Assembly: GCA_949295915.1 (NCBI GenBank)
Contig: CASFNB010000004.1
Location: 4,294-68,293, forward strand
From: an uncultured Pseudomonadota bacterium
GTDB taxonomy: Bacteria > Pseudomonadota > Alphaproteobacteria > RF32 > CAG-239
Length of the DNA stretch: 64,000 nucleotides
Reading direction: 5' to 3'
Shown here: piece by piece, positions 15,068 to 50,449 of the stretch
How the letters are laid out: every line of letters begins with the position of its first letter
Numbering within the stretch: position 1 is the first letter of the stretch
Program-made: the position numbers and the translations under genes
The notes under the pieces: model-generated
Databases searched by the model: none
What the model was told of the DNA's origin: nothing
Seen by the model: the letters and a program-made list of their open reading frames with translations, nothing else

Positions 15068-15106
15068 TTTTTTATCCTAGTAAATGATTGACCTTAGAGC
15101 TAAACA

Positions 15107-15122
15107 TGCAAAATGTGTGCCA
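15107..15122 (-). promoter_or_regulatory. Sigma-54 (-24/-12) promoter of fliK-flgD-flgE
   Basis: Minus strand TGGCACACATTTTGCA = GG-N10-GC, about 40 bp upstream of the fliK ATG. Confidence 0.85.
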
Positions 15123-15141
15123 AAAAAAAATAAGCGCACAC

Positions 15142-15180
15142 AAAAAAAAGAGGTTTCATTTTTTTGAAACCTCTTTTTTT
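15142..15180. terminator. Intrinsic terminator downstream of flaF
   Basis: AAAAAAAGAGGTTTCA-tttttt-TGAAACCTCTTTTTTT. Confidence 0.8.
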
Positions 15181-15194
15181 GCCTTTATTAAAAA

Positions 15195-28828: not shown

Positions 28829-29452
28829 TTATGCTTTTTTCGGCGTAACCGGAGCATTAACCTTTTGGCGCAAATCTTTAATCAAAGCTTCAACATTTCC
28901 GCCATTATTTTTAATAAACGCCGTATATTCGTTACGCGCGGTAATGGCTAAGCTAACATTTTCAATGATGATATCAACGATTTTGAAGTTATCGCCATTT
29001 TGTTTTACTCGCCAAACAACTTTGGCCGGAGCTCCTTCTCCCATATCCACTGTGGAATTTATAAAAACTTGATTCTTTGAGGCAGATGGTGTTGATCCGG
29101 TAAAGACAAACGACTTTCCTTTGAACTCATCAAAACGAGCTGACCATGTTTTGATATTCAATTCTCTATAGACTTGGATAAAATCTTTTCTTTGTTGCGG
29201 GGTTGCCGTACGCCAATAGCGCCCCAAAACAAATTGTCCGATAAAGTCTAAATCAAGAGCCTGATTAAACAGCTTTTCAAATCTTTCATCTTTTACTTTT
29301 TGAGAAACATTGGCGTTGATAATTTCTTCAATACCGTGACTGGTAACTTCGCGCACAAAAGCATCTGCTTTTTCTACGTTGACATCTGCTTTAGCACCGG
29401 TTGCAAACATTAAGCCCAAACTTAAAATTGCGGCAAAAACATTCTTTTTCAT
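28829..29452 (-). CDS. mlaC: Phospholipid-binding periplasmic protein MlaC/Ttg2D
   Basis: Signal peptide; IGQFVLGRYWRTATPQQRKDF, KIVDIIIENVSL; adjacent to mlaA. Confidence 0.85.
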   Translation of the reverse strand: MKKNVFAAILSLGLMFATGAKADVNVEKADAFVREVTSHGIEEIINANVSQKVKDERFEKLFNQALDLDFIGQFVLGRYWRTATPQQRKDFIQVYRELNIKTWSARFDEFKGKSFVFTGSTPSASKNQVFINSTVDMGEGAPAKVVWRVKQNGDNFKIVDIIIENVSLAITARNEYTAFIKNNGGNVEALIKDLRQKVNAPVTPKKA

Positions 29453-29464
29453 TCCTCAGTCTCC

Positions 29465-30235
29465 TTAAATTTCCATATCATCCACTTCTTCTTCAATTTC
29501 AAAATCGAAATCATATGAAGCTTGGCTTTCTTCTCCGCAAGAATTTAACTTGCTCTTATTTTGCATGTATGCTGATTTCATTGTCGTATAAAAATCGACG
29601 GAATTTCGCTGTAAATCATTGCCCAAATCTAAATAAGCTTCTCTGTTGACGATTGTTTTAATTGCTATATATCCGGCATATGCGTAGTAACCATCTTCAT
29701 GATCTTCCGTTAACCAGTATACCGGATTGGTAAAGGAATCTGCTATTTCTCCGGTAAAAGCTCGGGGAGTTGTCGAACCTATAAACGGTAAAACTAAATA
29801 TGGTCCTGATGGAACGCACCATTTGGCTAATGTTTCTTCAAAACCGTCGGGATGATGTTCCAATCCCCAAGCTGATGCCACATCAAACGTGCCGCCCAAA
29901 CCCAAGGTCGAGTTTATGACAAATCTGCTCACACTGGTACCCGAACGCGTAATTTCTCCTTGCAAAATTTGGTTAACTGCAGAAATTGGTTCTTTTATAT
30001 TGCTGAATGCGCTGCGAACTCTTTCTCTGACTGCCGGTGTTGTGATGGCACGATACCCCTCGGCTACCGGTTTTAATATATATTTGTCGAGTTGCATATT
30101 AAACTCAAACATGGCGCGATTAAAAGATTCAAACGGATCTTCCGAATCATGCTTATCTATATTGGTTGCAGATGCACATGATGCCGTCAAAAATACAGTA
30201 GCAGAAGCTACTGAAAACAGAGTACTCTTTTTCAT
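29465..30235 (-). CDS. mlaA: VacJ/MlaA lipoprotein
   Basis: DPFESFNRAMFEFN, RFVINSTLGLGGTFDVA, GPYLVLPFIG. Confidence 0.92.
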   Translation of the reverse strand: MKKSTLFSVASATVFLTASCASATNIDKHDSEDPFESFNRAMFEFNMQLDKYILKPVAEGYRAITTPAVRERVRSAFSNIKEPISAVNQILQGEITRSGTSVSRFVINSTLGLGGTFDVASAWGLEHHPDGFEETLAKWCVPSGPYLVLPFIGSTTPRAFTGEIADSFTNPVYWLTEDHEDGYYAYAGYIAIKTIVNREAYLDLGNDLQRNSVDFYTTMKSAYMQNKSKLNSCGEESQASYDFDFEIEEEVDDMEI

Positions 30236-30363
30236 AATTTTCTATTTACCTTTTACGGTTTAATATTATTTCGTTTTCAATATAACATCAAATTATTTGA
30301 AATCAATATAATTTTGTTTATAATCAGCATGTTTCAGATGATTTCTTTTTAAGGAGGTTTACT

Positions 30364-31119
30364 TTGAATTTCTTTCATATTTCTGATTTACACTTCAATC
30401 CTACGGACAAAAATGGTATAAAAAATATAGAAAAAATTTGTAAAAGTATTTCCGATTATAAACAAAAGGGTGATGTTCTCCTTATCTCGGGAGATATATT
30501 GAATAAAGATTTTTCTGACTACCAACCTATTTTTAACAAAATATTTGCATTGGATATGCCTTTTTTATGTTGTACCGGAAACCACGATAAATCGGCTCAA
30601 TTAATTGATGCCTTGGCGGGCTTATATCCGGAGCACCCTCTTCCTTTTAATGAAAGAAAGTTGGACTACGTTTGCAATGTTTTTCCTCTAAAAATCATCA
30701 CTCTTGACAGTTTTAAAGAAAACAACCCCGGAGGAGAAATTTTACCAGAGCAGCTCTCCTTTTTGGAAAATGGACTGATTATAGCCGACAAACCCGTCAT
30801 TATTATGATCCATCAATTTCCGCTTGATGCCGGATTGGACTTTTTTGATGTAAAAACCGGCGCAGCTTGGCGACATGATTTTGTTCATCTTGTCTCAAAA
30901 TATACCGATAAAATTAAACTCGTCGCTTGCGGACATTTGCACAATTCTGTTGTTTCTCATATTGAACAAACGCCGGTTATTTCCGCCTTTAGTGCTAACT
31001 GGCAAGCCGATCTTGATTTTATGCCATTGAATAATCTAAAAAATATTTCTCGTCCGGTCGGATACTATATCCACCGCTATGACGGCAAAAAAATTTTTTC
31101 TTATGCCGTTACACTCTGA
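30364..31119 (+). CDS. Calcineurin-like metallophosphoesterase (CpdA/GpdQ-like)
   Basis: ISDLH, SGD, GNHD, CGHLH; TTG start with AAGGAGG RBS. Confidence 0.85.
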   Translation: MNFFHISDLHFNPTDKNGIKNIEKICKSISDYKQKGDVLLISGDILNKDFSDYQPIFNKIFALDMPFLCCTGNHDKSAQLIDALAGLYPEHPLPFNERKLDYVCNVFPLKIITLDSFKENNPGGEILPEQLSFLENGLIIADKPVIIMIHQFPLDAGLDFFDVKTGAAWRHDFVHLVSKYTDKIKLVACGHLHNSVVSHIEQTPVISAFSANWQADLDFMPLNNLKNISRPVGYYIHRYDGKKIFSYAVTL

Positions 31120-31213
31120 TTTGTTACATTGTGTAATCTTTTGTGTTTTGCATTGTGAAAAAAAATAACTTACTATCCGAATCAGTTAAAAACAACATTA
31201 GAGGATTTATATT

Positions 31214-32374
31214 ATGACAAATAAACCAAATAAGCCGATTAATCTTTTTGATGTTCAAGCTTCTCAAAAAGTTATCGGTCAAGAAAATTTCTTAAACGCT
31301 TTTCAAACTATTTTAAACCACGGAGGCTATGCTCAAGGCCCAGAAACAAAAGAATTGGATGAAAAACTTGCTAACTTCTGCGGCGCAAAATATTGCTCTA
31401 CTTGCGGTTCCGGTACCGACGCTTTGACCTTGGCTTTGATGGCTTGGGATATTAAAGAAGGTGACGCTGTTTTCGTTTCTTCTTTCACTTTTGTGGCTTC
31501 TGCCGAATGTGCTGCTATTGTCGGTGCTACTCCGGTATTTGTTGACTCAAAACCCGATACTTATACCATGGATCCTACTGATTTGCAACGCGCTATAGAC
31601 GAAGTTAAAAAAGAAGGAAAACTCACCCCGAAAGTCGTTATCCCCGTTGATATTTTCGGTTCTCCGTGCGAGTATAATGAAATCATCAAAATCGCTCACG
31701 CCAACGGCATGAAAGTTCTTTCTGATGCTGCTCAAAGCTTTGGATCTGTTTATAACGGAACCAAAACAGGTAATGTAACCGATATGACCGCTACATCTTT
31801 CTATCCAACCAAACCTTTAGCCGGATATGGCGACGGCGGCGCCGTTTTCTCCAACACAAATGAAGAAAACGAAATGGTTAAATCTTGCCGCGTTCACGGT
31901 ATGAGCCCGCAAGACCACTATGATAATGTTCGCTTAGGTATGACCGGGCGTATGAATACTTTTCAAGCTGCCGTTCTCTTGCAAAAACTTAAAGTTTTTG
32001 AACAAGAATTGAAAGATCGTTACACCATTGCCAAAAGATATGACAATGAACTCAGCTCTTATTTTGGCAAACAACGCATTTTGGATAACTGCCAATCTGC
32101 TTATGCCCTCTATACCATTTACTGTGAAGATAGAGATGAATTGATGGCTTATCTCAAAGAAAACGGCATCCCTTGCGGGGCTTATTATCCGCGTCCGATT
32201 CACACTCAAACCGCTTATGCAAAATGGAATACTCGCAGTTTGCCTGTTTGTGAAAAACTTTCCAAGACCGTCCTTTCTATTCCGATGCATCCGTATTTGG
32301 ATAGTGACGTTCAAGACTATATCATTGAAACTATGAATAAGTTTGCTGAAAATAAAATGAAAAAAGCTGCTTAA
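31214..32374 (+). CDS. DegT/DnrJ/EryC1/StrS PLP-dependent sugar-nucleotide aminotransferase
   Basis: SGTDALTLALMA, DAAQSFG, SFYPTKPLAGYGDGG. Confidence 0.92.
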   Translation: MTNKPNKPINLFDVQASQKVIGQENFLNAFQTILNHGGYAQGPETKELDEKLANFCGAKYCSTCGSGTDALTLALMAWDIKEGDAVFVSSFTFVASAECAAIVGATPVFVDSKPDTYTMDPTDLQRAIDEVKKEGKLTPKVVIPVDIFGSPCEYNEIIKIAHANGMKVLSDAAQSFGSVYNGTKTGNVTDMTATSFYPTKPLAGYGDGGAVFSNTNEENEMVKSCRVHGMSPQDHYDNVRLGMTGRMNTFQAAVLLQKLKVFEQELKDRYTIAKRYDNELSSYFGKQRILDNCQSAYALYTIYCEDRDELMAYLKENGIPCGAYYPRPIHTQTAYAKWNTRSLPVCEKLSKTVLSIPMHPYLDSDVQDYIIETMNKFAENKMKKAA

Positions 32375-32402
32375 GCTATATTTCATATCATAGTTCAGTG
32401 AG

Positions 32403-32432
32403 AAAAAGCTACCTTAATAAGGTAGCTTTTTT
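32403..32432. terminator. Bidirectional terminator
   Basis: AAAAAGCTACCTT-aat-AAGGTAGCTTTTTT. Confidence 0.8.
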
Positions 32433-32551
32433 GTTGCATTAGCTTCAAAAATTGTTTTCAGCTTGTCTTAAGCTTTTTATTTATTGATAAATCATAAGTT
32501 TTTGTCTGCTGAATTTTTCTGCTCTAATTTTTGTTTTATGCTTACTGAAAA

Positions 32552-33709
32552 TTACTTTATTTTTTTCTTATTTTGTTTTTCTATACCTTTATCAATATAT
32601 TGACGAACATTCTGACCAAATGTTTGGCGGATATAAACTGTTATATTACTCGGTTTTTCTTTATAGGCTTCTGCCTCTTGTTGTGCCTGCAATAACTCTT
32701 CCATTTTCAGACCTTTTCGTAATGTATCTCGCCTTTCGGCGGCACCTTCTGCTCCTCGTACTGACGCTATATTAAACAATATATGTGATTTATATATATT
32801 TTTTGGATATTTCTCTCCATTTGCCAAAATATAACCTAATTCCATCATGGATGGGACATTCCCTTGCTTGACCGCCAAGTCAAGAACTTTTACTCCATTC
32901 CCATAGTTTTGCGGTGTGCCGTCTCCGTTCATATACATGCCGGATAAAATAAACATTGCCTCATCATAACCGGTATTGGCAGCCCTTTTTATAAGTTCAA
33001 AAGCTTTCAGATTGTCTTTTTCTACCATAAAACCCTTATAATAAGCATATCCCAACATAAAATCTGCTGTCGGATTTTTGGTCGTTGAGGCTTTTTTAAA
33101 TAGTTCTATGGCTTCTTGTGGGCGATAAAAATCACCTTGTTCGGAAAGATAAATAAAACCCAGATTGACCATTGCTTCGGTGTTTCCGAGTTCCGCCGCT
33201 TTTGAAAACATTTGTGTCGCCTTTACAATGTCTCTCGCCGTACCTATACCGCTATAATATAAACTTCCCAGATTATTGATTGCTATATTATCATTTTGAT
33301 TTGCCGCCATTTCATAATATGTAAATGCCTGCTTATAATTCGGCTCCACTTTTGTTGCCTCATCCCCATACAAATACATATATCCCAATGACATTTGAGC
33401 ATTCAAATCGCCAGAGGTGGCCATTCTCTGCAGTTTTTGCAATACTGATTCCTCTACTGCTGTTTCTGTTTGAACTTTGGATATTGGCTCTTTTTCTTTT
33501 TGTCTCCAAAAATTTAAAAATGAGAATATTCCCTTATCCTCAGTTAAAGAAGATTTTTCTTGCTTTTCTTGCGGCGTTTTCTCTTCTGAATTGACGGTAA
33601 CAACACTATCCCCCGTCAAGCTCAAAACTGCATCTTGCGCGTAGGCTGTTGACTGTGCAAGAACTACTCCTAATAAAAGTAATGATGTTTTTTTCATGAC
33701 TTTTCCCAT
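32552..33709 (-). CDS. Exported Sel1-like repeat protein (six repeats)
   Basis: Signal peptide MKKTSLLLLGVVLAQSTAYA; repeats such as AQMSLGYMYLYG...AFTYYEMAANQ and AINNLGSLYYSGIG. Confidence 0.9.
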   Translation of the reverse strand: MGKVMKKTSLLLLGVVLAQSTAYAQDAVLSLTGDSVVTVNSEEKTPQEKQEKSSLTEDKGIFSFLNFWRQKEKEPISKVQTETAVEESVLQKLQRMATSGDLNAQMSLGYMYLYGDEATKVEPNYKQAFTYYEMAANQNDNIAINNLGSLYYSGIGTARDIVKATQMFSKAAELGNTEAMVNLGFIYLSEQGDFYRPQEAIELFKKASTTKNPTADFMLGYAYYKGFMVEKDNLKAFELIKRAANTGYDEAMFILSGMYMNGDGTPQNYGNGVKVLDLAVKQGNVPSMMELGYILANGEKYPKNIYKSHILFNIASVRGAEGAAERRDTLRKGLKMEELLQAQQEAEAYKEKPSNITVYIRQTFGQNVRQYIDKGIEKQNKKKIK

Positions 33710-33716
33710 TTTTAAA

Positions 33717-35504
33717 TTATCTTCCGATATCTAACGTATTTATTATCTTACTCATTTGTTGTTTATTATGATAATAACTGTTTTTTCTGGCAAGTATTTT
33801 TTGTTGGACAAGAAGCGTGTTTTTTTCCAAATTTTCCAGCATCTCCAACTCATCTTGCTTTGGCTGAACTGTGGGGAACGCTCTTTCGTTAAAAGCATTA
33901 TCCTTAAACATTGCACTTATTTTTTCTTGATTTTCTTTTTTGCTAAAATATGTTGCTTCCGTTCCCGCTATTCTACCATTATATTTTGGCAAAATAAATT
34001 CTGCATAGCGATTGAACAAATCATCCAACTGAGCTTTGGTTATAACAAGTCCCAAAGATTTTAATTCTTTATCGGTAACATTAAATTTTTGCTTCATATC
34101 AAATGCTTTGAACGGACGATACATAAAATTATCTTGGATAAACTTTGCTACAATTCGATGAATCTTTTGTTCCTTGCGGCTAATCGGATTGATGCTTTGG
34201 GCGTCAAAATCTTTGCCATTTGCTCTTTTGGCATCTTCCAAGCGAAAAGCTTTATCTAACACTTGTAAGTTGGCTTCACGGATTTTTTGTTTATTTACCC
34301 TTTGAGCTTCCATTTGTTTTTCAAGGATACGCATTGCAACAATTTTTTTATCCCCTTCGGTTAAATAGCGTCCTTTATTTTCTTCCCAAAAACGGGTTCC
34401 GTTGTTTTGCGTATTTTGGCGACTTATCAGCAAAATATTATCATTTCTGCTTTCATTATTTTCAACGCCGGCATAAATATCGTGCGTGATAACATCTCCT
34501 TCATAGAGTTTTGTTATTTTAATTTGAACCTCGATTTTTACACCATCTAAAGTTAAATAAAGTCTTTTTTCACGATAGTTTTTAGTTTCATAGGCACTGC
34601 TTACATTTTGATTACCATGAAATGTATCTTTAATTTCTTTTGTATTAACGGCATATTGAGGATCATTGGCAAAAAGCTGTAATGATTCTTCCGTATCTTG
34701 ATAATATTTACGGCAGATGGTAAATCTGAAAATGTCTTTTAAGCGTTCATGCGGCAATGAAAGTTTATCTATCTTCTTTTGAATTTTGGGTTCTGCTTCT
34801 TTCAACGCATTTACATATTCTTCTGTTCCTTGCGAATATTTTTTTGCAAATTCTGCTTCATATGCCGCTCTTATTTTTTTCAGGTCTTTTTGATACTGTT
34901 CATAATATTTTCCGCCGCGGGAAATTAGGTTGCCTTTTGAGTCATAAACCGGCATTTTGATTTTATCTATGGCTCGGCGAATATCTTTCATTCCCGGCAT
35001 AATCAAATCGAGCGGATTATCACGAAAATCATAAAATCTTAAGCGCATTGACGTAAACGGCGTAATATGCTTGGTTTGATACTCTTTGTTTTTAGGCATA
35101 TTGCGGTAGGTTGAAGAAACAACATTTTCTTCAATTTTTCCAGTATGCAGATCTATGGCATTGATTTCATCAGGAGCAATTTCTTCTCCTAATTCTTCCA
35201 ATTTTTTTACCTTTTCCGAACGATACTCTCGCAAAATAGAATGGCTGATTTTTTGCACCATGTCATTGATAATTTTGGAAGGATTTGAACAAATTTTTCT
35301 CAAATATTCTGCGGCAACGGAATCTATCATACCTTTTTTCTCGGCAGTATTGATATATTCAAAATTATAGGCATTAATTTTCTGTTGCAGATTATTAATT
35401 TCTTCTGCACTCAAATATTCAATATCTTTTGCCTTTATTTCCAACCTTTTATCATTTTGGAAAGCATCATCAATTTTTGCAATCAGTTCTGCATATTTTG
35501 CCAT
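33717..35504 (-). CDS. Hypothetical 595-aa protein with a RelA/SpoT synthetase-like nucleotidyltransferase domain
   Basis: Ordered motifs MKDIRRAIDK (aa 172-181), LKDIFRFTI (255-263), NYRE (309-312), IEVQIK (324-329), THDIY (340-344). Confidence 0.65.
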   Translation of the reverse strand: MAKYAELIAKIDDAFQNDKRLEIKAKDIEYLSAEEINNLQQKINAYNFEYINTAEKKGMIDSVAAEYLRKICSNPSKIINDMVQKISHSILREYRSEKVKKLEELGEEIAPDEINAIDLHTGKIEENVVSSTYRNMPKNKEYQTKHITPFTSMRLRFYDFRDNPLDLIMPGMKDIRRAIDKIKMPVYDSKGNLISRGGKYYEQYQKDLKKIRAAYEAEFAKKYSQGTEEYVNALKEAEPKIQKKIDKLSLPHERLKDIFRFTICRKYYQDTEESLQLFANDPQYAVNTKEIKDTFHGNQNVSSAYETKNYREKRLYLTLDGVKIEVQIKITKLYEGDVITHDIYAGVENNESRNDNILLISRQNTQNNGTRFWEENKGRYLTEGDKKIVAMRILEKQMEAQRVNKQKIREANLQVLDKAFRLEDAKRANGKDFDAQSINPISRKEQKIHRIVAKFIQDNFMYRPFKAFDMKQKFNVTDKELKSLGLVITKAQLDDLFNRYAEFILPKYNGRIAGTEATYFSKKENQEKISAMFKDNAFNERAFPTVQPKQDELEMLENLEKNTLLVQQKILARKNSYYHNKQQMSKIINTLDIGR

Positions 35505-35568
35505 GTCTCACCTTTTTGTCTAATATAGCAAAGGATTATACATGATTTGTATATTTAATGCAAACAAA

Positions 35569-35616
35569 AAAAGCTCTCGCCATTGCTGACGAGAGCCCTT
35601 TTGATATATTTATTGT
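35569..35616 (-). terminator. Terminator after flagellin 1; 48-bp identical copy at 37167-37214
   Basis: Minus strand GGGCTCTCGTCAGCAATGGCGAGAGCTTTT. Confidence 0.85.
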
Positions 35617-35621
35617 TGTTT

Positions 35622-37013
35622 TTAGAACAATTGCAATACTGATTGCGAAGCTTGTGATGCCAAGCTCAAGGAGTTGATTGCAAGTTGTTGTCTGGTTTGC
35701 AATGCCAACATATTGGCTGACTCTTCATTCATATCGGCCAAGGTCAAGTTATCGGCACCTTCCGTCAACACGTTAATCAAATTATCGGTAAACTCTTCTC
35801 TTGTTTGTACGATTGAGTAGTTGTTACCGAAATCTGATGCCATGGTACGCAATTTGCTGACAGCATTTTCGACCTGACTGATTGATGTATCAATATCACT
35901 ATCTTTTTGCCAATCGTTTTTAACTACTGCCATACCTAAGCCTTCAGAACTACCATCTACACCTTTTACTTCGATTTTTGATGTACGGTCTTCATTGAAG
36001 ATTACGGTCAAATCGTTTTCTTGCAGCAAGTTAATACCTTTATAACCGGCATCTTTGGCCAAAGAGTCGATTTGAGACAAAATCTCGTTAAACTGTTTGG
36101 CATAATCTACACGCTCTTCGGTGATTGTAGTTGCGTCACCGGCTTTCTTTGAACCGGTTAAGCCCAACTCATCCAAAGCATCTGCTTGTGTCGGGTCTTT
36201 AGCAAAGATTCTGAATTCCAAGTTTTTGGCTGTAACGGAAACACGTTTACCATCAGCTACGGCTGCAACACCGCCTTGTCCATTTAAAGCGGCAGCAATA
36301 GTCGCTGAGTTTGCTCCGTTACCGGTTCCAGTTAATGTAACTTCAACAGCGGCACCAGTTGTATAAGCCATTCCGTTTGATCCGTCTGCTTTTGCACCGT
36401 TTACCCAAGAAATAGCCGAGCCGTCGGTTGATGACACACTAACAGATTTCCCGTTTAATTCAGCATTTAAACCCAATGCTTGCAAATCTGTTACGGCGCT
36501 TTGAGCGATTGCATCCGCATTATCGCCTTTTAAGGTGATTTCATGGCCTTCACCATCAGGCGTATAGACCATGAATTTTTTATCTTTGGATTCGTTTGTA
36601 AAATCAATCGTGAATTTACTCAAGTCGGTACGTGAATCGACAATAACGGTTCCGCTGACGCCTTTGGTAATTTCATCAGAAGTGATTGCATATTTATCAT
36701 AATTTGAAGCAACATCACGAGCTGAGTTAGCAATAGCTTTGGCTTGTTCGGCAAATGAAGTAATGGTTTCAATTGCTTCGTTGGCAGCTTTAATGGTTTG
36801 AACACCTTGTCCCATGCTGTCCAACAATGCGCTCAAGTCATCGGCGCGGTTATTTAAGGATTGTGCTGTGTAATATGATGACGGGTTATCGATTGCTGAG
36901 TTTACTTTTTTACCCGTTGCAAGGCGTTCTTGTGTCATATCCATCAAACTTTGGGTGGATTGTAATGATAACAAGTTTGAACGCATGCTTGCTGTTAATG
37001 ATATATCTGCCAT
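35622..37013 (-). CDS. fliC: Flagellin 1 (463 aa)
   Basis: MADISLTASMRSNLLSLQ...ERLATGKKVNSAIDNP; C-terminus LTLADMNEESANMLALQTRQQLAINSLSLASQASQSVLQLF. Confidence 0.93.
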   Translation of the reverse strand: MADISLTASMRSNLLSLQSTQSLMDMTQERLATGKKVNSAIDNPSSYYTAQSLNNRADDLSALLDSMGQGVQTIKAANEAIETITSFAEQAKAIANSARDVASNYDKYAITSDEITKGVSGTVIVDSRTDLSKFTIDFTNESKDKKFMVYTPDGEGHEITLKGDNADAIAQSAVTDLQALGLNAELNGKSVSVSSTDGSAISWVNGAKADGSNGMAYTTGAAVEVTLTGTGNGANSATIAAALNGQGGVAAVADGKRVSVTAKNLEFRIFAKDPTQADALDELGLTGSKKAGDATTITEERVDYAKQFNEILSQIDSLAKDAGYKGINLLQENDLTVIFNEDRTSKIEVKGVDGSSEGLGMAVVKNDWQKDSDIDTSISQVENAVSKLRTMASDFGNNYSIVQTREEFTDNLINVLTEGADNLTLADMNEESANMLALQTRQQLAINSLSLASQASQSVLQLF

Positions 37014-37166: not shown

Positions 37167-37214
37167 AAAAGCTCTCGCCATTGCTGACGAGAGCCCTTTT
37201 GATATATTTATTGT
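37167..37214 (-). terminator. Terminator after flagellin 2 (duplicate of 35569-35616)
   Basis: 48-bp identical repeat. Confidence 0.85.
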
Positions 37215-37221: not shown

Positions 37222-38628
37222 TTAGAACAATTGCAATACTGATTGTGAAGCTTGTGATGCCAAACTCAATGAGTTGATTGCAAGTTGTTGTCTGGTTTGC
37301 AATGCCAGCATATTGGCTGATTCTTCGTTCATATCGGCCAAGGTCAAGTTATCGGCACCTTCCGTTAACACATTAATCAAATTATCGGTAAAATCTTCTC
37401 GAGTTTGTACAATTGAGTAGTTATTACCGAAATCTGAAGCCATGGTACGCAATTTGCTGACAGCATTTTCGACCTGACTGATTGATGTATCAATATCAGC
37501 ATCTTTTTGCCAATCATTCTTAACTTGAGACATGCCCAAACCTTCAGAACTACCGTCTACACCTTTTACTTCGATTTTTGATGTACGATCTTCATTGAAG
37601 ATTACGGTCAAATCGTTTTCTTGCAACAAGTTAATACCTTTGTAGCTGGCATCTTTGGCCAAAGAGTCAATTTGAGACAAAATCTCATTAAACTGTTTGG
37701 CATAATCGATACGCTCTTCGGTCACTTCTTTAGCATTTCCGGCCTTTTTGGAACCGGTAATACCCAAAGTATCAGCTGCGCCACCAAAAATTCTGAACTC
37801 TTTATTGGCATCTTTTGAATATATAGAAACTGATTTTCCGTTAGCTTCGGCAACGACCATATTTCCGGCACCATCAGTTGTATCGTTCAAAGCAGCAGCG
37901 ATTGTAGCAGAGTTTGCTCCTTTAGAAGCATTTAAGTTAACTTTCTTTGCTGCAGAATCAGATGCTGTTAAGCCACCTGTTCCATCTGCTTTGCTTCCAT
38001 TTACCCAAGAAATATCAGAACCATCGGTTGAAGAAACGGTAACCGTTGCGCCATCTTCACCGATTTCAGCATTCAATCCCAATCCTTGCAGAGCCGTTAC
38101 AGCTTCTTGAGCTGCCAATTTTGCTGTTGTTGCACCACCGCTCAAAGAAACTTCTTGACCTTCTTGATCGCCAATATAAACGGTAAATTTCTTACTTGCA
38201 TCTGATGTTGCTGTAAATGTGATATCAAAAGTGCTCATATCCGTACGGCTATCAACATAGATATCGCCGGTTACGCCCTTTTCAATTTCTTTAGAAGTGA
38301 TTGCATATTTATCGTAATTTGAAGCAACATCGCGTGCAGAGTTTGCGATAGCTTTTGCTTGTTCTGCAAATGAGGTGATGGTTTCGATGGCTTCGTTGGC
38401 AGCTTTAATGGTTTGAACACCTTGTCCCATGCTGTCCAACAATGCACTTAAGTCATCGGCGCGGTTATTTAAGGATTGTGCTGTGTAATATGATGACGGG
38501 TTATCGATTGCTGAGTTTACTTTCTTACCCGTAGCAAGGCGCTCTTGCGTCATATCCATCAAACTTTGGGTGGATTGTAATGATAATAAGTTTGAACGCA
38601 TACTTGCTGTTAATGATATATCTGCCAT
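37222..38628 (-). CDS. fliC: Flagellin 2 (468 aa)
   Basis: First ~110 aa identical to flagellin 1, near-identical C-terminus, divergent middle. Confidence 0.93.
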   Translation of the reverse strand: MADISLTASMRSNLLSLQSTQSLMDMTQERLATGKKVNSAIDNPSSYYTAQSLNNRADDLSALLDSMGQGVQTIKAANEAIETITSFAEQAKAIANSARDVASNYDKYAITSKEIEKGVTGDIYVDSRTDMSTFDITFTATSDASKKFTVYIGDQEGQEVSLSGGATTAKLAAQEAVTALQGLGLNAEIGEDGATVTVSSTDGSDISWVNGSKADGTGGLTASDSAAKKVNLNASKGANSATIAAALNDTTDGAGNMVVAEANGKSVSIYSKDANKEFRIFGGAADTLGITGSKKAGNAKEVTEERIDYAKQFNEILSQIDSLAKDASYKGINLLQENDLTVIFNEDRTSKIEVKGVDGSSEGLGMSQVKNDWQKDADIDTSISQVENAVSKLRTMASDFGNNYSIVQTREDFTDNLINVLTEGADNLTLADMNEESANMLALQTRQQLAINSLSLASQASQSVLQLF

Positions 38629-38843: not shown

Positions 38844-40256
38844 CTAAAACAACTTCAAAACTGCTTGGGATGCTTGTGATGCCAAGCTCAAGGAATTGAT
38901 ACCGAGTTGTTGTCTGGTTTGCAATGCCAACATGTTGGCTGATTCTTCGTTCATATCGGCCAAGGTCAAGTTATCGGCACCTTCCGTTAACACATTAATC
39001 AAATTATCGGTAAAATCTTGACGTGTTTGAACAATGGAATAATTATTACCGAAATCTGAAGCCATGGTACGAAGCTCTCTGATTGCGCTTTCGACTTGAG
39101 AAATGGCAAAATCGATATCGGAATCTCTTTGCCAATCATTTCTTGCGGCAGATAAACCCAAACCTTTGGCACTGGCATCCACACCTTCAACTTCCAATTT
39201 TGAAGAACGATCTTCATTGAAGATTACGGTCAAGTCATTTTCTTGCAACAAGTTGATGCCTTTGTAAACAGAATCTTTTGCTACATTATCAATTTGAGAT
39301 AAAATCTCATTAAATTGAGCTGCATAGTCAATGCGTTCTTGTCTAACTTCGCTGGCAATACCGGCCGACTTATCCTGAGCTCCGCCCAATGCTTTCAATG
39401 CGGCTTGATTTTTTTCCACATCATCAGCAAAAATACGGAATTCCAAATCTTCTGCCGTAATAGCAACCATTTTACCATCCGGATTTGCAACAATACCGAT
39501 ATCTCCGGCATCTTCGTTTGCTTGGTTAATTGCAGCGGCAATGGTTGCAGAGTTTTGCCCTGTGCTATCAGGCTCCAAAGTAACGACCATAGCATTTTCT
39601 GTTGCTGCCTGCAAACTATCTGCCCCTTTGGTCCATGAGATGGCTGTACCATCAGTAGAAGAAACGTTAATTGTACTTGCATCTTCATCCCAGCTGGCAT
39701 TCAAGCCCATACCTTGCAAATCTGTGATAATGGACGCCGCAATATCCGACTCATCTCCGCCAGCATCTGCAATTGTTGTGATAGTTTTTTGAGTGCCGTT
39801 TTCCAGGTAGACGGTAAATTCTTTTTCAAAATCATCTGCTTGGATTTCTAGATCAAAAGCGGTTAAATCCGTGCGGGTATCCAAGATGATTTCACCATCA
39901 ACCGGTTTAGTCACTTCATCAGTGGTAATGGCATATTTATCATAATTGCTGGCAATATCGCGGGCTGAGTTTGCAACTGCTTTTGCTTGTTGAACGAATG
40001 AGGTGATTGTTTCAATACCTTCGTTTGCGGCTTTAATGGTTTGAACACCTTGCCCCATGCTATCTAACAAAGCATCTAAGTCATCTGCTCGGTTGTTTAA
40101 GGATTGTGCCGTATAATATGACGACGGATTATCTATTGCCGAATTGACTTTATTTCCCGTTGCCAAACGTTCTTGTGTCATATCCATCAAGCTTTGCGTA
40201 TTTTGCAAAGATAACAAATTAGAACGCATACTTGCTGTTAATGATATATCTGCCAT
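38844..40256 (-). CDS. fliC: Flagellin 3 (470 aa, more divergent paralog)
   Basis: Same conserved termini; acidic variable region. Confidence 0.93.
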   Translation of the reverse strand: MADISLTASMRSNLLSLQNTQSLMDMTQERLATGNKVNSAIDNPSSYYTAQSLNNRADDLDALLDSMGQGVQTIKAANEGIETITSFVQQAKAVANSARDIASNYDKYAITTDEVTKPVDGEIILDTRTDLTAFDLEIQADDFEKEFTVYLENGTQKTITTIADAGGDESDIAASIITDLQGMGLNASWDEDASTINVSSTDGTAISWTKGADSLQAATENAMVVTLEPDSTGQNSATIAAAINQANEDAGDIGIVANPDGKMVAITAEDLEFRIFADDVEKNQAALKALGGAQDKSAGIASEVRQERIDYAAQFNEILSQIDNVAKDSVYKGINLLQENDLTVIFNEDRSSKLEVEGVDASAKGLGLSAARNDWQRDSDIDFAISQVESAIRELRTMASDFGNNYSIVQTRQDFTDNLINVLTEGADNLTLADMNEESANMLALQTRQQLGINSLSLASQASQAVLKLF

Positions 40257-40889: not shown

Positions 40890-41312
40890 ATGGCCATTCA
40901 ACCTAAAAATTTTGATGATGCAGAAAAAAGTGTTTATATGAGAGCCCTCTCGTTTATGCTTTCTTTAGATAAGAAAAACACGGTTGAAAAATTTGACTTT
41001 CTTAAAATTCAAGCCTTGCGTTGCGGATTTGACGGTAGAAAAATCAAAACAAGATCAACCGACAAAAGCTCTGATATTGCTTTGGCTCTTAATAAAATTG
41101 ACAATATTGCGATTAGACGTTATATCCTTCTCAACATGATTATGCTGACAATCGCCGGTCATGAGCTCTTAGATACCGAGGTGGATACCATCTACGGAAT
41201 CGGAACAAAAGCCGGAATCAGCGTGGATAAAATTGATGACTTTTTCCTTTGGGCTGCTCGAGGCGTGGAATGGCAAGTCGAAGGAATGCGAATCGTTGAA
41301 GAAGACTTATAA
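40890..41312 (+). CDS. TerB-like (tellurite resistance B fold) hypothetical protein
   Basis: Helical pattern YILLNMIMLTIAGHELLDTEVDTIYGIGTKAGIS; 3 bp from uup. Confidence 0.45.
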   Translation: MAIQPKNFDDAEKSVYMRALSFMLSLDKKNTVEKFDFLKIQALRCGFDGRKIKTRSTDKSSDIALALNKIDNIAIRRYILLNMIMLTIAGHELLDTEVDTIYGIGTKAGISVDKIDDFFLWAARGVEWQVEGMRIVEEDL

Positions 41313-41315
41313 AAT

Positions 41316-43127
41316 ATGACTAGTGAACCGCCGATTTATGCAATTAAAGGAGCCGAGCTGAGTTTCGGCTCCAATCATTTGTTTACAAATGTTGACCTAT
41401 ATATTAACCGCGGAGATAAAATTTCTCTGGTCGGACGTAACGGCTCAGGAAAATCGACTCTGTTAAAAGTGATTTCCGGCGTGCTTGAACCTGATAACGG
41501 CGAAATTTTTATTCAGCCCGGAATCAAAATTGCCTATATGCCTCAAGAGCCTGACTTTTCTCAATATCATTCCCTTAAAGAAATGATCCTTTCCGGATTG
41601 CCCGATAACGGGAAAGGACAAGAATATAAAGCCGATATGCTCATTCAACAATTTAACATTATCGGTGATGCGTCCCCAAAATCTGCTTCCGGAGGAGAAA
41701 GACGCAAGGCCGCATTGGCAAAAACTCTTATCAATGAGCCAGACATTCTGCTGCTTGACGAGCCTACCAACCACCTTGATATTGCTACTATCGAAACTCT
41801 GGAAAATATCATCAAAAATTTTGCCGGTGCGGTGGTGGTTATTTCTCACGACAGAATGTTTTTGAATAACATTTCGCAAACAACATTTTGGCTCGACCGT
41901 GGAATCATGCGCCGCAACAACAAAGGCTTTAAGTTTTTTGAAGAATGGCAAGACCAGGTTATTGAACAAGAAATCATCGAGCAAAAAAATCTTAATAAAA
42001 AATTGGAAGAAGAGACGGAATGGCTGCATAAAGGCGTTACGGCTCGTCGTCGCCGCAACCAAGGAAGACTGCGCCGTTTGCAACAACTTAGAATCGAGCG
42101 CAAAGAACAAATCAAACAAATCGGCAATATCAACCTCAATGTCGAAGAAGGCGATTATCGTTCCAAATTGGTGATTGAAGCCAAAAATATTTGCAAAGCT
42201 TTTGGTGACAGAATCATTGTTAAAGATTTTTCAACCCGCATTATTAAAGGAAACAAAATCGGTATCGCCGGTCCAAACGGCGCCGGAAAAACCACTTTAA
42301 TCAAACTCTTAACTAAAAGACTCGAACCCGACTCCGGTTTCGTCAGAATCGGTAAAAATTTGGAAGAAGCTTACTTTGACCAAAATAGGCTAACGCTTGA
42401 CCCGAAAAAGACTCTTTGGCAAACGCTTTGTGATAAAGGCGACCATATTTTGGTGCGCGGACAATATCGTCATATTATTGCTTATCTTAAAGACTTTTTG
42501 TTCCGTCCCGATCAAGCGCATTGTCCGGTTTCTGCCCTTTCCGGCGGTGAAAAAAACCGTCTTATGTTGGCTAAGGCCTTGGCTCAACCCTCAAACTTTT
42601 TGGTTTTGGATGAACCAACCAATGATTTGGATATGGATACGCTTGATTTGCTGCAAGAGGTTTTAAGCGACTATGAAGGGACCATGCTCATCGTCAGCCA
42701 TGATCGCGACTTTTTGGACCGAGTGGTTACATCCGTTATCTATATGAAAGGCGATGGCACCGTTTTTGAAAATGCCGGCAGCTATTCGGAAATTTTGGAA
42801 AAAATACACACTCAAAACAAACCCGAAAGCAAAGATAATAAAAAAGCTCCCAGTAAACCCGTTGCTGCCGAACCTCGTCCGAAAAAAACGGCAAAACTCA
42901 GCTATAATCAGCAAAGACTCTTAGAAATTTTGCCGCAAAAGGTTGAAGATTTGGAACAAAAAATTGCTCTTACCGAGCAAAAACTCGGCGATGCCGATTT
43001 GTACAACTCTAACCGTGCCGAATTTGAAAAATTGAGTGCAGATTTGCTCAAATTGAAAGACGAAATGGAAAAAGCCGAAAATGAATGGCTGGAAATCCAA
43101 GCCTTAAAAGATGAACTTGAAGCTTAA
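41316..43127 (+). CDS. uup: ABC-F family ATPase Uup
   Basis: GRNGSGKST, SGGERR, LLLDEPTNHLD, GVTARRRRNQGR, GPNGAGKTT, LSGGEKNR; C-terminal KLSYNQQR coiled coil. Confidence 0.9.
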   Translation: MTSEPPIYAIKGAELSFGSNHLFTNVDLYINRGDKISLVGRNGSGKSTLLKVISGVLEPDNGEIFIQPGIKIAYMPQEPDFSQYHSLKEMILSGLPDNGKGQEYKADMLIQQFNIIGDASPKSASGGERRKAALAKTLINEPDILLLDEPTNHLDIATIETLENIIKNFAGAVVVISHDRMFLNNISQTTFWLDRGIMRRNNKGFKFFEEWQDQVIEQEIIEQKNLNKKLEEETEWLHKGVTARRRRNQGRLRRLQQLRIERKEQIKQIGNINLNVEEGDYRSKLVIEAKNICKAFGDRIIVKDFSTRIIKGNKIGIAGPNGAGKTTLIKLLTKRLEPDSGFVRIGKNLEEAYFDQNRLTLDPKKTLWQTLCDKGDHILVRGQYRHIIAYLKDFLFRPDQAHCPVSALSGGEKNRLMLAKALAQPSNFLVLDEPTNDLDMDTLDLLQEVLSDYEGTMLIVSHDRDFLDRVVTSVIYMKGDGTVFENAGSYSEILEKIHTQNKPESKDNKKAPSKPVAAEPRPKKTAKLSYNQQRLLEILPQKVEDLEQKIALTEQKLGDADLYNSNRAEFEKLSADLLKLKDEMEKAENEWLEIQALKDELEA

Positions 43128-43693
43128 GCGCAGGCTTTTGTCAATAGTTTGATTATTCCTTCCAACTGCGGTTCGACTAACTGTCTTTCTTGAGGTGATA
43201 TTTTTTCAACGTTCAAATTTCTTCTCTGAAGATCTGCCGCACGGCGTAAGGTTGATGCAACTTTCGAATCTTCTGCATTGTCAGCACCATCTTGCATCAG
43301 GCGTTGTTTTTTTAATACTTCTCTATCGCGAAGAATGGTCAATATGATGACTCGCAATCGCGTATTAATATGTACAAATCTATTTACATCCCATCCGCGG
43401 CGACGTAACCATGCTGACAATTTGCTATCGAGCTGGTTGCTTCCGTCTGTTGTGTCGTATGATAACTCTGGGATTTGAGGCCCATGCTCATATTCTTCAC
43501 AATATTTTATCCATGTTCGTAAAAAAGCCTTTAACTCTTCCGATGAAATTTGTACCGAAACAGATACTTGATTCTTTGGATAATGCGGGGCAAATTTTTC
43601 ATTTTCTATATGATAAACGGCTGAAGCAATAATGCACAGAGCAACCGTAAAAATTGCTAAAATTATGTATATATATTTCTTTCGAATTTTCAT
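43124..43693 (-). CDS. Hypothetical membrane-anchored/exported protein
   Basis: Start 43693 preferred (MKIRKKYIYIILAIFTVALCIIASAV); the longer track start overlaps the HAD gene. Confidence 0.7.
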   Translation of the reverse strand: MKIRKKYIYIILAIFTVALCIIASAVYHIENEKFAPHYPKNQVSVSVQISSEELKAFLRTWIKYCEEYEHGPQIPELSYDTTDGSNQLDSKLSAWLRRRGWDVNRFVHINTRLRVIILTILRDREVLKKQRLMQDGADNAEDSKVASTLRRAADLQRRNLNVEKISPQERQLVEPQLEGIIKLLTKACA

Positions 43694-43694
43694 G

Positions 43695-44588
43695 CTACCA
43701 GCGCAAATTGGAAATGACATAATCCGGCGAGGTGTCAAAACTGTTTGAAAGCTCTCTGGTTTTGGCAACATCGGGAATGTAACCTTCGCCCAAAAAATTA
43801 ACATGAACGCCTTTGCTAACCAAAGCGGCATGAATGCCTAACAAATTGGCACCTTTTATATCTGTTGTCATATTATCGCCAATCATCAATATTTTGGCTT
43901 TGTCCATATCAGCATGGTCTTCGATTACGTATTCCATGATTTTGACATCGGGTTTGCCAACGGTGATAATTTTTCCTCCCAAAACGGCATATTGTTCCGC
44001 AATTGCCCCCGCTGCTAAACAAACTTTACCATCCTTATACGTAGAGGTATCGTTACCGGCACAAACAAACGGAATTGCCAAGCTGGCAGCGTGTTCGAGC
44101 TCTGCTCGGTAAGTGTCGGTTGTATCATCTAAAGAAGCAACCTCACCCATATATATAAAGTCTGCTTTACTGATGTCGCTTACTTTTTCATAATCCAAGC
44201 CGCTAAAAACACCGTCATCTTCTTGACTCCCCAATTGATAATAGCGGGCACCGAGAGCAGCATATATGCCTTGTTTGGCTTTTAAATGATAATGCAAAAT
44301 TTCGCCGGCTGTGATAATCGAATCAAACAAACTCAACGGGACTCTGTTTTCATGCAACAATCTGGCAACGGCTGCAACTCTTTTAGAGGTGTTGCTCAAC
44401 AAAATGATGTGCTTGCCTGATTTTTTCAGATTAACAAGCGCAGTAATTGCTTCAGACTTAACTGAAGAGCCGTCTGTTATAACGCCGGAAAAACCAACGA
44501 TAAAAACTTCATAATTGTCTATTATTTTCAAAATATTAACGATGGGTTTTATCATTTTCATTTTGTTATCGTCCCAATCATAAAACAT
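43695..44588 (-). CDS. HAD-superfamily class IIA hydrolase (TIGR01459-like)
   Basis: LLSNTSKR, IITAGE, GKPD, MIGDNMTTDIKGAN; motif I reads VGFSGVI instead of DxxGV. Confidence 0.8.
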   Translation of the reverse strand: MFYDWDDNKMKMIKPIVNILKIIDNYEVFIVGFSGVITDGSSVKSEAITALVNLKKSGKHIILLSNTSKRVAAVARLLHENRVPLSLFDSIITAGEILHYHLKAKQGIYAALGARYYQLGSQEDDGVFSGLDYEKVSDISKADFIYMGEVASLDDTTDTYRAELEHAASLAIPFVCAGNDTSTYKDGKVCLAAGAIAEQYAVLGGKIITVGKPDVKIMEYVIEDHADMDKAKILMIGDNMTTDIKGANLLGIHAALVSKGVHVNFLGEGYIPDVAKTRELSNSFDTSPDYVISNLRW

Positions 44589-48506: not shown

Positions 48507-48546
48507 AAAAAGCAAAGCTCCTCAGATGAGGAGCTTTGCTTTTTTT
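48505..48546. terminator. Bidirectional terminator
   Basis: AAAAAAAGCAAAGCTCCTC-agat-GAGGAGCTTTGCTTTTTTT. Confidence 0.85.
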
Positions 48547-50449
48547 AATGAGTTTTAGTATTAACGGCTTGATATACATTATTGAAATCTACCGGATTAC
48601 TTAAGTCTAATGTTTTTCCTTTTTTATTGTTATCGGCTGTAACTTCACCTTTTTTATCCAACTCTACCGATTCATTCAAATCATAGTCTTTTTCATGTCC
48701 CATACTGGTATCTACCGCTTCCAAAGGAACACTTGATTTCGGAGTTTTCGGCTTTTCTACCGGTGTTTCTTCTTCAATAACAACTTGTTTACGAATGGTA
48801 TCTCTAACAATAACCGGTTCGCCTTTAATAGTATCTCCCGGAATATAAACAGGCTCACCTTTAATAGTATCTGGCGGCAAAACCTTAACTTCTTGTACGG
48901 CTTTGGGCAAAATGGGTGATTTTTTAGTCGGAGTTTTCTTAACCAGAGTGGGCTTTTTCTTAACAACCGGTTTGGGTTTCGGTTTATTTTGCTCTTCACA
49001 GTCTTTTTTACCTTGAGCCAAGCCATCCATATAACCATCATTATATTTTTCATCAATCAAGCGAGAAACCTCATCGCAATCGGTCATGCTCTTCTTATCG
49101 ACCTGTTCTTGCAAGTCTTTGACGTTCTTTTCAAGTTTTTCTTGGTTTTGGCAACTACGAATGCCCATAAAACCTAATAAAGCAATACCACCGACGACAA
49201 CGGCATCTCGAACTTTTTTCCACCAAGAACGACTAGGCGCTTCTACCGGTTTCTTTTCTTCTTTTGGTGTTTGAACCGGAGGAATGTTACCACCACTGTT
49301 TCCGCCATTATTCACATAACCTTGGTTATTTCCTTGTCCGCCCAAAACAACCGGTATCGGCGCAATCACAGAGCTGTTTTCGTTCTTCTTTTCTTGCGTC
49401 ATTTGCGGGGCGGAAACACGTTCCGTTCCTGCGTTATTTACAAAAGCGGCAGCACCGGCTGAACGTGTTTGGTTATTATCTCTTTCTTGTTCGTTTGTGA
49501 CTTCAATATTGCTCATGTCATACAGATTTTCTGCCAACATGTTGATGGTATCAATGTCTTTGACATCTTTTACCATATCTTTCAAAGAGGCAAAGTCAAA
49601 ACCTTCCGGCAAATTGCCAATCGGCTCCATATTATTTTTAGCGCAAGCAATCAAAATTTTGTTGCGCAAAACCGGATCTTTCACATTATCTTTAATGCGA
49701 ATTTTAGCTTTCGGATTTGATGTTTTGGCTTTTTTGATAATCAAATCATAAATGGCATAAGGTTCTGCATTATTTTCTTTTTTAACAACATCAAAACCTT
49801 TATTACCATGGTCAATTCCGGTAAAAACGGTTTTATTGTCTTTTTGAGCTTCAACTTTCAAGCTATTGTCTTTTAAGGCTTGAACAATATAGCTTATGCC
49901 ACTTTTATTATCATTAAAGTTACCCCAAAATTCTTGAGACTTTTTAACATCATCGCTCAAGTTTGAAGTATTATTGCTGATTTCTTTGCTAAAATTGCGG
50001 TTAGCTTCTTGACCGATATTGTATTGTTTTCCAAGGCTCAATTGGCTCAGACGAATAACGTGGTTATCAAGCAAGAAATCCATCTCGCCTTTAGTCAATT
50101 CATCAAAATGATATTGTCCGTTTGTTTCTACGGCGCGGCTCATGATTTCTTCGGCGTTATAGAGTTTGTTTTTGATACGCACGCGAATTTCTTTGTTATA
50201 TTCATTGCGCGCATCTAATGCCAAAGCCTTTTCTTCTTCGGTATACTGGTTGCTGTTTTTAATTTCTTCATAGGTGCGATTGTTGATGACAATACCCAAC
50301 ATATTGTCATATTGCACTGAAAGGAGACCGGCAGCTTTGACGGCCTTACGCAGATTGTTCAGCTCGACAGTATTCATTTTGACAATACTGTCACTGTTCA
50401 ATACTGCTTCAAGCTCTTCTTTAGTCATTTCGTTAAAATTTTGTGCCAT
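48545..50449 (-). CDS. Hypothetical bitopic membrane protein (634 aa) with an LPD7-like segment and Pro/Lys-rich tail
   Basis: TM AVVVGGIALLGFMGI; DHG...YDLIIKKAK...IRIK...KILIACAKNNMEPIG; DTIKGEPV repeats. Confidence 0.75.
   Translation of the reverse strand: MAQNFNEMTKEELEAVLNSDSIVKMNTVELNNLRKAVKAAGLLSVQYDNMLGIVINNRTYEEIKNSNQYTEEEKALALDARNEYNKEIRVRIKNKLYNAEEIMSRAVETNGQYHFDELTKGEMDFLLDNHVIRLSQLSLGKQYNIGQEANRNFSKEISNNTSNLSDDVKKSQEFWGNFNDNKSGISYIVQALKDNSLKVEAQKDNKTVFTGIDHGNKGFDVVKKENNAEPYAIYDLIIKKAKTSNPKAKIRIKDNVKDPVLRNKILIACAKNNMEPIGNLPEGFDFASLKDMVKDVKDIDTINMLAENLYDMSNIEVTNEQERDNNQTRSAGAAAFVNNAGTERVSAPQMTQEKKNENSSVIAPIPVVLGGQGNNQGYVNNGGNSGGNIPPVQTPKEEKKPVEAPSRSWWKKVRDAVVVGGIALLGFMGIRSCQNQEKLEKNVKDLQEQVDKKSMTDCDEVSRLIDEKYNDGYMDGLAQGKKDCEEQNKPKPKPVVKKKPTLVKKTPTKKSPILPKAVQEVKVLPPDTIKGEPVYIPGDTIKGEPVIVRDTIRKQVVIEEETPVEKPKTPKSSVPLEAVDTSMGHEKDYDLNESVELDKKGEVTADNNKKGKTLDLSNPVDFNNVYQAVNTKTH

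Follow-up and report, generated by a model that had tools for sequence, protein, structure and literature searches.

RelA/SpoT homologue (RSH) enzymes are central to bacterial stress signaling, toxin-antitoxin biology, phage defense, and interbacterial warfare, and surveys of their diversity take as their starting point either the Pfam RelA_SpoT model or known members, which serve as seeds for iterative searches. The present analysis concerns a gene for a 595-amino-acid (aa) protein in a stretch of 64,000 nucleotides (nt) from an uncultured Pseudomonadota bacterium (GTDB lineage Alphaproteobacteria; RF32; CAG-239), corresponding to positions 4,294 to 68,293 of the forward strand of contig CASFNB010000004.1 (NCBI GenBank assembly GCA_949295915.1); this whole stretch is referred to as the window. 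A preliminary description of the window, made from its letters and open reading frames (ORFs), had proposed that the protein is a divergent RSH-like enzyme. Structure prediction, profile comparisons, and homologue surveys show that it very probably is homologous to the RSH synthetases in fold. Since it fails at the Pfam threshold and at two motif positions, it is taken here to represent a new, divergent family of the RSH synthetase superfamily.

The closest described systems are the small alarmone synthetases (SASs) RelQ/SAS1 and RelP/SAS2 (YjbM and YwaC; 5DED, 6FGK, and 6EWZ), which gave the best structural and sequence-profile matches. The 595-aa protein shares with them the order of secondary-structure elements, the Mg-binding Asp, a Tyr-Arg pair, a strand with the motif E-x-Q-x-(R/K) (where x is any amino acid), a helix with an H..Y motif, and a long helix after the core. 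In contrast to these enzymes, it is three times larger, owing its size to an N-terminal helical region of 105 aa, an insertion of 65 aa, and a C-terminal region of about 165 aa; it lies below the Pfam RelA_SpoT threshold, and it has a secreted Sel1-repeat protein as its partner. The long RSH enzymes (Rel, RelA, and SpoT) possess an apparently homologous synthetase domain, and the top fold matches include RelSeq and SpoT, but HD, TGS, zinc-finger, and ACT/RRM domains were not detected in the 595-aa protein with Pfam.

Like the toxic SASs (toxSASs; FaRel, FaRel2, PhRel, CapRel, and Tas1/Apk1), the protein has a stand-alone synthetase domain without a hydrolase domain and, as in CapRel, this domain is fused to additional ones. 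Unlike the toxSASs, it has no adjoining antitoxin, immunity, or small alarmone hydrolase gene, carries no PAAR, Rhs, or MuF domain, gives no match in PADLOC, and is inherited vertically in one lineage. Nor was a C-terminal pseudo zinc-finger antitoxin domain of the CapRel kind found in Pfam and PDB searches, the whole protein containing two Cys. The exported alarmone synthetases (EASs), such as SaEAS, VpEAS, and AaEAS (PMC12691689; 8VX3), also have the RSH synthetase fold, and SaEAS is among the matches obtained here. Their extracytoplasmic association has a counterpart at this locus in the secreted operon partner and the flagellar neighborhood, but the 595-aa protein, unlike the EASs, lacks a signal peptide and any known export domain. 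The described export routes of EASs are Sec, the type VII secretion system, type III secretion with XopAD, MuF, extracellular contractile injection systems, and the type VI secretion system; the flagellum is not among them, and no flagellar link is described among about 600 EASs (PMC12691689).

Evidence for an RSH synthetase fold

The full-length AlphaFold2 (AF2) model of the protein has a predicted local distance difference test score (pLDDT) of 78.7, and its top 47 PDB matches in Foldseek are all RSH synthetases, including SAS1/RelQ (5DED), RelSeq, FaRel2 (8PU4), SpoT (7QPR), RelP, and the exported SaEAS (8VX3). A model of aa 106 to 382 alone, built with the wider alignment described below, reached a pLDDT of 90.4 and a predicted TM-score of 0.80. 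Its top 36 PDB matches are again exclusively RSH synthetases (RelSeq, SAS1/RelQ, RelP, SpoT, SaEAS, and FaRel2), with probabilities of 0.97 to 1.00 and a best E value of 8.6e-4, and unrelated folds start only at E values above 0.2. The RSH fold foreseen in the preliminary description is thus predicted for both models. In a viral structure library, the matches include phage RelA/SpoT and Tas1-like proteins.

Sequence comparisons lead to the same enzymes. Searches of the PDB sequences with phmmer gave nothing significant for the single sequence or for the profile of the close homologues, and only the profile of the wide alignment of 51 sequences reached an SAS. Among all PDB sequences, the best match of this profile is Bacillus subtilis YwaC (SAS2/RelP; E = 0.0017), and a RelQ-type SAS (3L9D) and SaEAS stand lower in the list. 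The YwaC alignment pairs D257, N-Y-R, E-x-Q-x-K, and H-x-x-Y with the SAS motifs. Comparison by hhalign with a small alignment made of verified RSHs (RelQ, two streptococcal SASs, Escherichia coli RelA, B. subtilis Rel, and the long RSH of a related metagenome-assembled genome [MAG]) gave a P value of 9e-4, which became 1.1e-4 when the variable insertion was excised. The 595-aa protein itself gave nothing significant in Pfam, NCBIfam, PADLOC, or PHROGs, and 2 of the 33 distant homologues searched gave matches to Pfam RelA_SpoT in the correct region (E = 0.073 and 0.61) that fall below its gathering threshold of 27 bits. The four sensitive tests (full-length model, domain model, profile against the PDB, and hhalign) concur on RSH synthetases, and a single register runs through all the alignments.

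The residues listed in the preliminary description (K173, R177, K181, D257, R260, T262, N309-Y310-R311, E325, Q327, H341, and Y344) are all found where it had placed them, spanning nt 34473 to 34988, and the motif register that it had assigned is reproduced by hhalign with the Asp and the Glu intact. In this register, K173, R177, and K181 correspond to RelQ K48, S52, and K56, and D257 falls, by both hmmsearch and hhalign, on the Mg2+-coordinating Asp position (D72 in RelQ, D264 in RelSeq, and D90 in FaRel2). N-Y310-R311 is equivalent to G-Y-R of RelQ, and E325-x-Q327-x-K329 to RelQ E139-x-Q-x-R (E323 in RelSeq) within the EIQIRT strand, where Lys replaces Arg and Ile replaces Thr. H341 matches the His of the following helix in RelQ. 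Mg2+ coordination and stacking on the acceptor are the roles predicted for the conserved Asp and the conserved Tyr, respectively, of SAS enzymes, and the activity of FaRel2 is abolished by D90G and by Y128A (bioRxiv 10.1101/2021.04.30.441581).

Conservation and distribution of the family

A word-indexed search retrieved 36 relatives, none of which is named or carries a relevant Pfam domain, and a profile search of 1.84 billion cluster representatives retrieved only 46 clusters (50% identity). Two alignments were used, namely, a close set of 32 full-length homologues and a wide set of 51 sequences with identities of 17 to 92%. Across the close set, every residue of the preliminary list is invariant, Y310 and R311 included, except for H341 (approximately 90%). 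Across the wide set, the sole invariant columns of the core are K173, R177, K181, D257, R260, and E325, so that the conservation of D257, R260, and E325, to which the preliminary description had given particular weight, extends to the most distant members; Q327, K329, T340, H341, and Y344 are conserved in at least 90% of the sequences. The invariant residues are exactly the putative catalytic ones, and the conservation of this pattern across the family indicates strong selection rather than a chance motif match.

All 13 genome matches are MAGs of uncultured Alphaproteobacteria or proteobacteria, several with record names from human gut collections (UMGS, MGYG-HGUT, and Hadza). Searches of all ORFs in the recovered loci with a hidden Markov model (HMM) of the family found one member per locus, and two unannotated ORFs of the window, of 634 and 1,415 aa, were rejected as paralogues by the same searches. 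In a related MAG (locus L020), a separate and normal long RSH of 715 aa (13078 to 15225) lies 3.7 kb from the family member (8019 to 9395; 458 aa, 24% identity). This, together with the missing HD, TGS, and ACT domains, agrees with the earlier statement that the 595-aa protein is not the housekeeping Rel. The family member of L020 lacks a Sel1 partner and sits between a 241-aa ORF and fmt; the 241-aa ORF was considered as a conserved partner and rejected, having no relative in any other locus.

The RSH-like protein diverges somewhat faster than several of its neighbors, with 51% identity where FlbT and DegT have 81% and, in another comparison, 30% where the Sel1 partner has 51% and the flagellin N terminus has 82%. 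Two further records, P0022 and P0025, join about half of the 595-aa protein (78 to 98% identity) to PF18075 or PF00590, and these are probably assembly or gene-calling chimeras rather than real fusions.

Domain architecture

The protein is composed of an N-terminal helical region, a core that resembles the RSH synthetases, and a C-terminal region (Table 1). The core begins with a strand and the helix bearing K173, R177, and K181, continues with the strand bearing D257 and R260, a helix, and the strand bearing Y310 and R311, and ends with the strand bearing E325, Q327, and K329, the helix bearing H341 and Y344, and a long helix (aa 383 to 428). The latter probably corresponds to the long C-terminal helix of the SAS enzymes and includes the highly conserved block NLQVLDKAFRLEDAK (aa 406 to 430), which lies just before the C-terminal region.

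The insertion of about 65 aa that had been noted between motifs 1 and 2 is seen in the AF2 model as a helical hairpin (aa 199 to 246) with helices at aa 199 to 222 and 228 to 246. Within the core, conservation is lowest in this insertion, and its length varies, being short or nearly absent in P0044, P0046, and other homologues, which indicates that it is not part of the catalytic scaffold.

Neither the N-terminal nor the C-terminal region has detectable relatives in Pfam or among the PDB sequences. The C-terminal region contains a conserved block at aa 451 to 480 (NFMYRPFKAFD), and the segment from aa 383 to 540, which covers most of it, has an isoelectric point (pI) of 9.65, compared with 9.2 for the whole protein. 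Cys is absent from this region, and comparison with Pfam and the PDB showed no resemblance to known antitoxin domains. The N terminus, MAKYAELIAKIDDAF, lacks the hydrophobic core of a signal peptide and is modeled as a helix, and Pfam searches found none of the export-associated domains LXG/WXG, PAAR/Rhs, MuF, XopAD, and DUF4157.

TABLE 1 Features of the RSH-like gene and its surroundings in the window
Feature	Position (nt)	Strand	Basis or remarks
RSH-like gene, 595 aa, stop codon included	33717..35504	minus	ORF list, ATG start
All-helical N-terminal region, aa 1-105	35190..35504	minus	AF2 helices 4-105, pLDDT 83-93; conserved in distant homologues
RSH-synthetase-like core, aa 106-430	34215..35189	minus	Domain model, Foldseek, profile against PDB, hhalign
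Variable insertion, aa 186-250, short strand and helical hairpin	34755..34949	minus	Between Lys/Arg helix and Asp strand
C-terminal region, aa 431-595, basic, variable tail usually ending in Arg	33720..34214	minus	Unique to the family
Sigma-70-like promoter of the two-gene operon, TTGCAT-17-TATAAT	35535..35564	minus	Consensus match only; the scan lists TTTGCA-18-TATAAT
Intrinsic terminator of the last flagellin gene, 16-bp stem then T run	35567..35602	minus	Separates flagellin from the RSH-like gene
Operon partner, 385-aa Sel1-repeat protein with Sec signal peptide	32552..33709	minus	Starts 7 nt after the RSH-like stop; Pfam Sel1 E = 9e-39
Three flagellin genes directly upstream	35622-37013, 37222-38628, 38844-40256	minus	Same strand as the RSH-like gene

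The two-gene operon and its surroundings

The protein had been called an orphan, which does not hold, because it has a conserved operon partner that the preliminary description missed. This partner is an exported Sel1-repeat protein, and the pair occurs in every orthologous locus recovered. All the Sel1 partners have a signal peptide and a conserved KGIFSFLNF motif, which follows a low-complexity linker in the 385-aa protein of the window. The solved structures related to this 385-aa protein are those of Sel1-repeat proteins secreted by gut or mucosal bacteria (6OK3, E. coli 4BWR, and Helicobacter pylori 1OUV). The pair is also kept with distant family members (24 to 30% identity where measured) in three different neighborhoods, after flagellins (L006), after a FlaF-like gene and ABC-F (L022), and after alanine racemase (Alr; L021); in L007 it stands on a short contig. 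Two distant members, those of L020 and L023, have no Sel1 partner. The conserved unit is thus the two-gene operon, and adjacency to flagellins is frequent but not obligatory.

The RSH-like gene is preceded by the Shine-Dalgarno sequence AAAGGTGAGAC and, directly before its start codon, by the 5' untranslated region (UTR) string TAGACAAAAAGGTGA (35505 to 35530, minus strand). This string is kept in the orthologues (loci L001 to L022) and is still recognizable in the distant members of L006 and L022. Orthologous loci keep the layout of terminator, promoter, and 5' UTR, with an equivalent hairpin. The predicted promoter of the operon and the flagellin terminator indicate that the gene is not simply transcribed by read-through from the flagellins. 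The GC content of the operon (0.35 for nt 32000 to 36000) is lower than that of most of the window (approximately 0.40).

Two candidate regulatory features were rejected. A flagellin-type leader was discarded for the RSH-like gene, the regions upstream of the flagellins sharing no sequence with its own upstream region. The motif TAGACAAAA, shared by the RSH-like gene and the 634- and 1,415-aa ORFs, was not accepted as evidence of coregulation; since it occupies the place of the −35 hexamer at the two large ORFs, the simplest interpretation is that of a promoter-like or 5'-UTR string.

As the preliminary description had stated, the gene lies behind a flagellin array, with three flagellin genes directly upstream, and neither an HD hydrolase nor a small cooriented antitoxin ORF adjoins it in the ORF list or by Pfam, its neighbors being a flagellin gene and the Sel1 gene. 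The window is chromosomal, with a flagellar set (FlhA, FlhF, a sigma-54 activator, FliG, FliF, FlgE, FlgD, and FliK) among housekeeping genes, and the presence of HydF points to an anaerobe. FlbT and a FlaF-like ORF come after the flagellin array.

Several other observations concern this neighborhood. The three flagellins have near-identical N and C termini and differ in their central domain, which suggests recent tandem duplication with divergence of that domain, and the terminator stems that follow two of the flagellin genes (the one in Table 1 and that at 37167 to 37198, minus strand) are identical: GGGCTCTCGTCAGCAATGGCGAGAGC. In the window (28829 to 32374) and in L005-type loci, the Sel1 gene is followed by genes for DegT, a metallophosphoesterase, MlaA, and MlaC, and in L001-type loci (L001, 11108 to 14732) these four genes are in the reverse order and two of them, those for DegT and the phosphoesterase, are on the opposite strand, a local rearrangement beside the conserved pair. 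A 140-aa ORF (40890 to 41312, plus strand) divergent from FlbT is syntenic in all related loci (57 to 89% identity), has no Pfam match, and is probably a divergent FlaF. A 235-aa ORF (43124 to 43831, minus strand), also without a Pfam match, is conserved beside ABC-F in related loci (30 to 74% identity). The 634-aa (48545 to 50449) and 1,415-aa (50586 to 54833) ORFs, both on the minus strand, have no Pfam match and no relative in the fetched loci, and each is preceded by the string T(A/T)GACAAAA, placed like a −35 element.

Proposed activity and alternative explanations

We lean toward the view that the 595-aa protein belongs to the RSH synthetase superfamily as a far-diverged member restricted to its lineage and works as an active, regulated cytoplasmic pyrophosphokinase, encoded in an operon with the Sel1 gene as a domesticated signaling module. 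That the protein has catalytic activity appears probable. The enzyme would be Mg2+ dependent and would transfer the beta,gamma-pyrophosphate of ATP to the 3'-OH of an acceptor, with ATP bound on the helix of K173, R177, and K181, Mg2+ held by D257, the acceptor base stacked on Y310, and E325, Q327, and K329 acting in catalysis. The acceptor would most probably be a purine nucleotide, which is the default, and the product would then resemble (p)ppGpp or (p)ppApp; an RNA acceptor is possible given the basic C-terminal region. The N-terminal helical region and the C-terminal region most likely regulate or target the enzyme, which, having no export signal, is probably cytoplasmic and would be cotranscribed with the Sec-exported Sel1 protein from the predicted sigma-70-type promoter. 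Uncultured gut Alphaproteobacteria inherit the pair vertically, in most cases directly behind flagellin genes, and a domesticated module connected with the envelope, with motility, or with host-facing physiology is more likely than a mobile toxin. A domesticated regulated enzyme is favored because of the lack of a signal peptide, of a secretion domain, of an antitoxin or hydrolase neighbor, and of a PADLOC match, together with the single-copy synteny.

Several observations weigh against this proposal. The Pfam RelA_SpoT (PF04607) search suggested by the preliminary description gave no match for the 595-aa protein even at an E value of up to 10, the TM-scores of the domain model to RSH structures are low (TMt of 0.35 to 0.41), and the homology is supported by several individually weak but concordant signals, with no curated family model significant. 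Modest TM-scores are consistent with a distant relationship, a large insertion, and additional strands. The motifs themselves depart from those of RelQ, since the first Arg of R-x-K (R46) is Gly171, the position of Ser52 is Arg177, the His of GYxSxH is Arg/Lys314, and the Gly of the same motif is Asn309; the change of Ser to Arg in motif 1 and the loss of the motif-3 His had been anticipated and are seen in the alignments. The Arg of D-x4-R (R77) is T262 in register, and the invariant R260 stands two residues earlier, from where it may occupy the same face of the strand as the canonical Arg. These departures could change or abolish the chemistry. Moreover, no sequence signature separates tRNA-modifying from nucleotide-making enzymes (bioRxiv 10.1101/2021.04.30.441581), and the acceptor is therefore not readable from the sequence. 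Finally, it is not obvious how an enzyme in the cytoplasm would interact with a partner in the periplasm.

The low TM-scores, the lack of a curated HMM match, and individual E values of only about 1e-3 to 1e-4 might suggest that the motifs match by coincidence and that the protein is unrelated to RSH enzymes. This is extremely improbable, because four independent tests, among them the subthreshold Pfam matches beside Foldseek, the profile search of the PDB, and hhalign, retrieve the same family in the same register, and the residues that they align are the invariant ones. A protein that keeps the RSH fold as a nucleotide sensor, scaffold, or flagellum-associated factor after loss of catalysis would account for the altered positions (Gly171, Arg177, the shifted Arg260, and Arg/Lys314) and for a gene found mostly beside flagellins. 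However, the two residues on which the chemistry depends (D257 and E325) and the stacking Tyr310 show no change even in relatives of 17% identity, which is unusual for a pseudoenzyme and makes this explanation very unlikely.

A third possibility, raised like that of an exported effector in the preliminary description, is a toxSAS-like toxin or antiphage enzyme, autoinhibited by its own N- or C-terminal domains in the manner of CapRel, that upon triggering would pyrophosphorylate tRNA 3' ends or make (p)ppApp. FaRel2 and Tas1-like proteins are among the fold matches, the extra domains are large enough to autoinhibit the core, the basic character of the protein and especially of its C-terminal region would suit RNA binding, and its divergence is faster than that of several neighbors, as in the comparison with the Sel1 protein and the flagellin N terminus. 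Against these stand the lack of an adjoining small antitoxin or hydrolase, the absence of PADLOC matches for all five family members searched, a C-terminal region devoid of Cys and of likeness to known antitoxin domains, and the occurrence of the gene in single copy and in synteny within one lineage, neither patchy nor in a mobile island; we regard this reading as unlikely. The obligate-looking association of a seemingly cytoplasmic enzyme with a Sel1 protein that is periplasmic or secreted is not accounted for by such a location and leaves room for the minority reading in which the enzyme is itself exported, by way of the flagellar type III apparatus or otherwise. Enzyme and Sel1 protein would then form a two-part extracytoplasmic or host-directed module that makes an alarmone-like nucleotide or pyrophosphorylates a new acceptor outside the producer. 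The gene does follow the flagellin array directly, inside a large flagellar gene region, its secreted partner is similar to Sel1 proteins that interact with hosts (such as 4bwr and 1ouv), and alarmone synthetases that are exported and able to act outside the cell are known (PMC12691689). Yet neither a Sec signal peptide nor any known export-associated domain is present in the 595-aa protein, and its N terminus is modeled as a confident helix rather than as the disordered segment typical of flagellar export substrates. The gene also has its own sigma-70-like promoter and a terminator between it and the flagellins, and the pair is found away from flagellins too, so that export is quite unlikely.

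Implications for the RSH superfamily

The reading of the 595-aa protein as a regulated cytoplasmic enzyme of the RSH synthetase superfamily has consequences for how this superfamily is surveyed, because a family that is invisible to RSH models yet keeps the catalytic constellation indicates that the known RSH repertoire is incomplete. What is new is the architecture, together with the conserved partner, an exported Sel1-repeat protein, beside flagellins in abundant uncultured Alphaproteobacteria of the human gut. If the enzyme were exported after all, it would be the first with the alarmone synthetase fold to be linked to the flagellum. Identifying the product and the trigger of the enzyme could bring to light a second messenger or a pyrophosphorylation acceptor of a new kind, and also a connection between nucleotide signaling and the envelope, motility, or the host interface.

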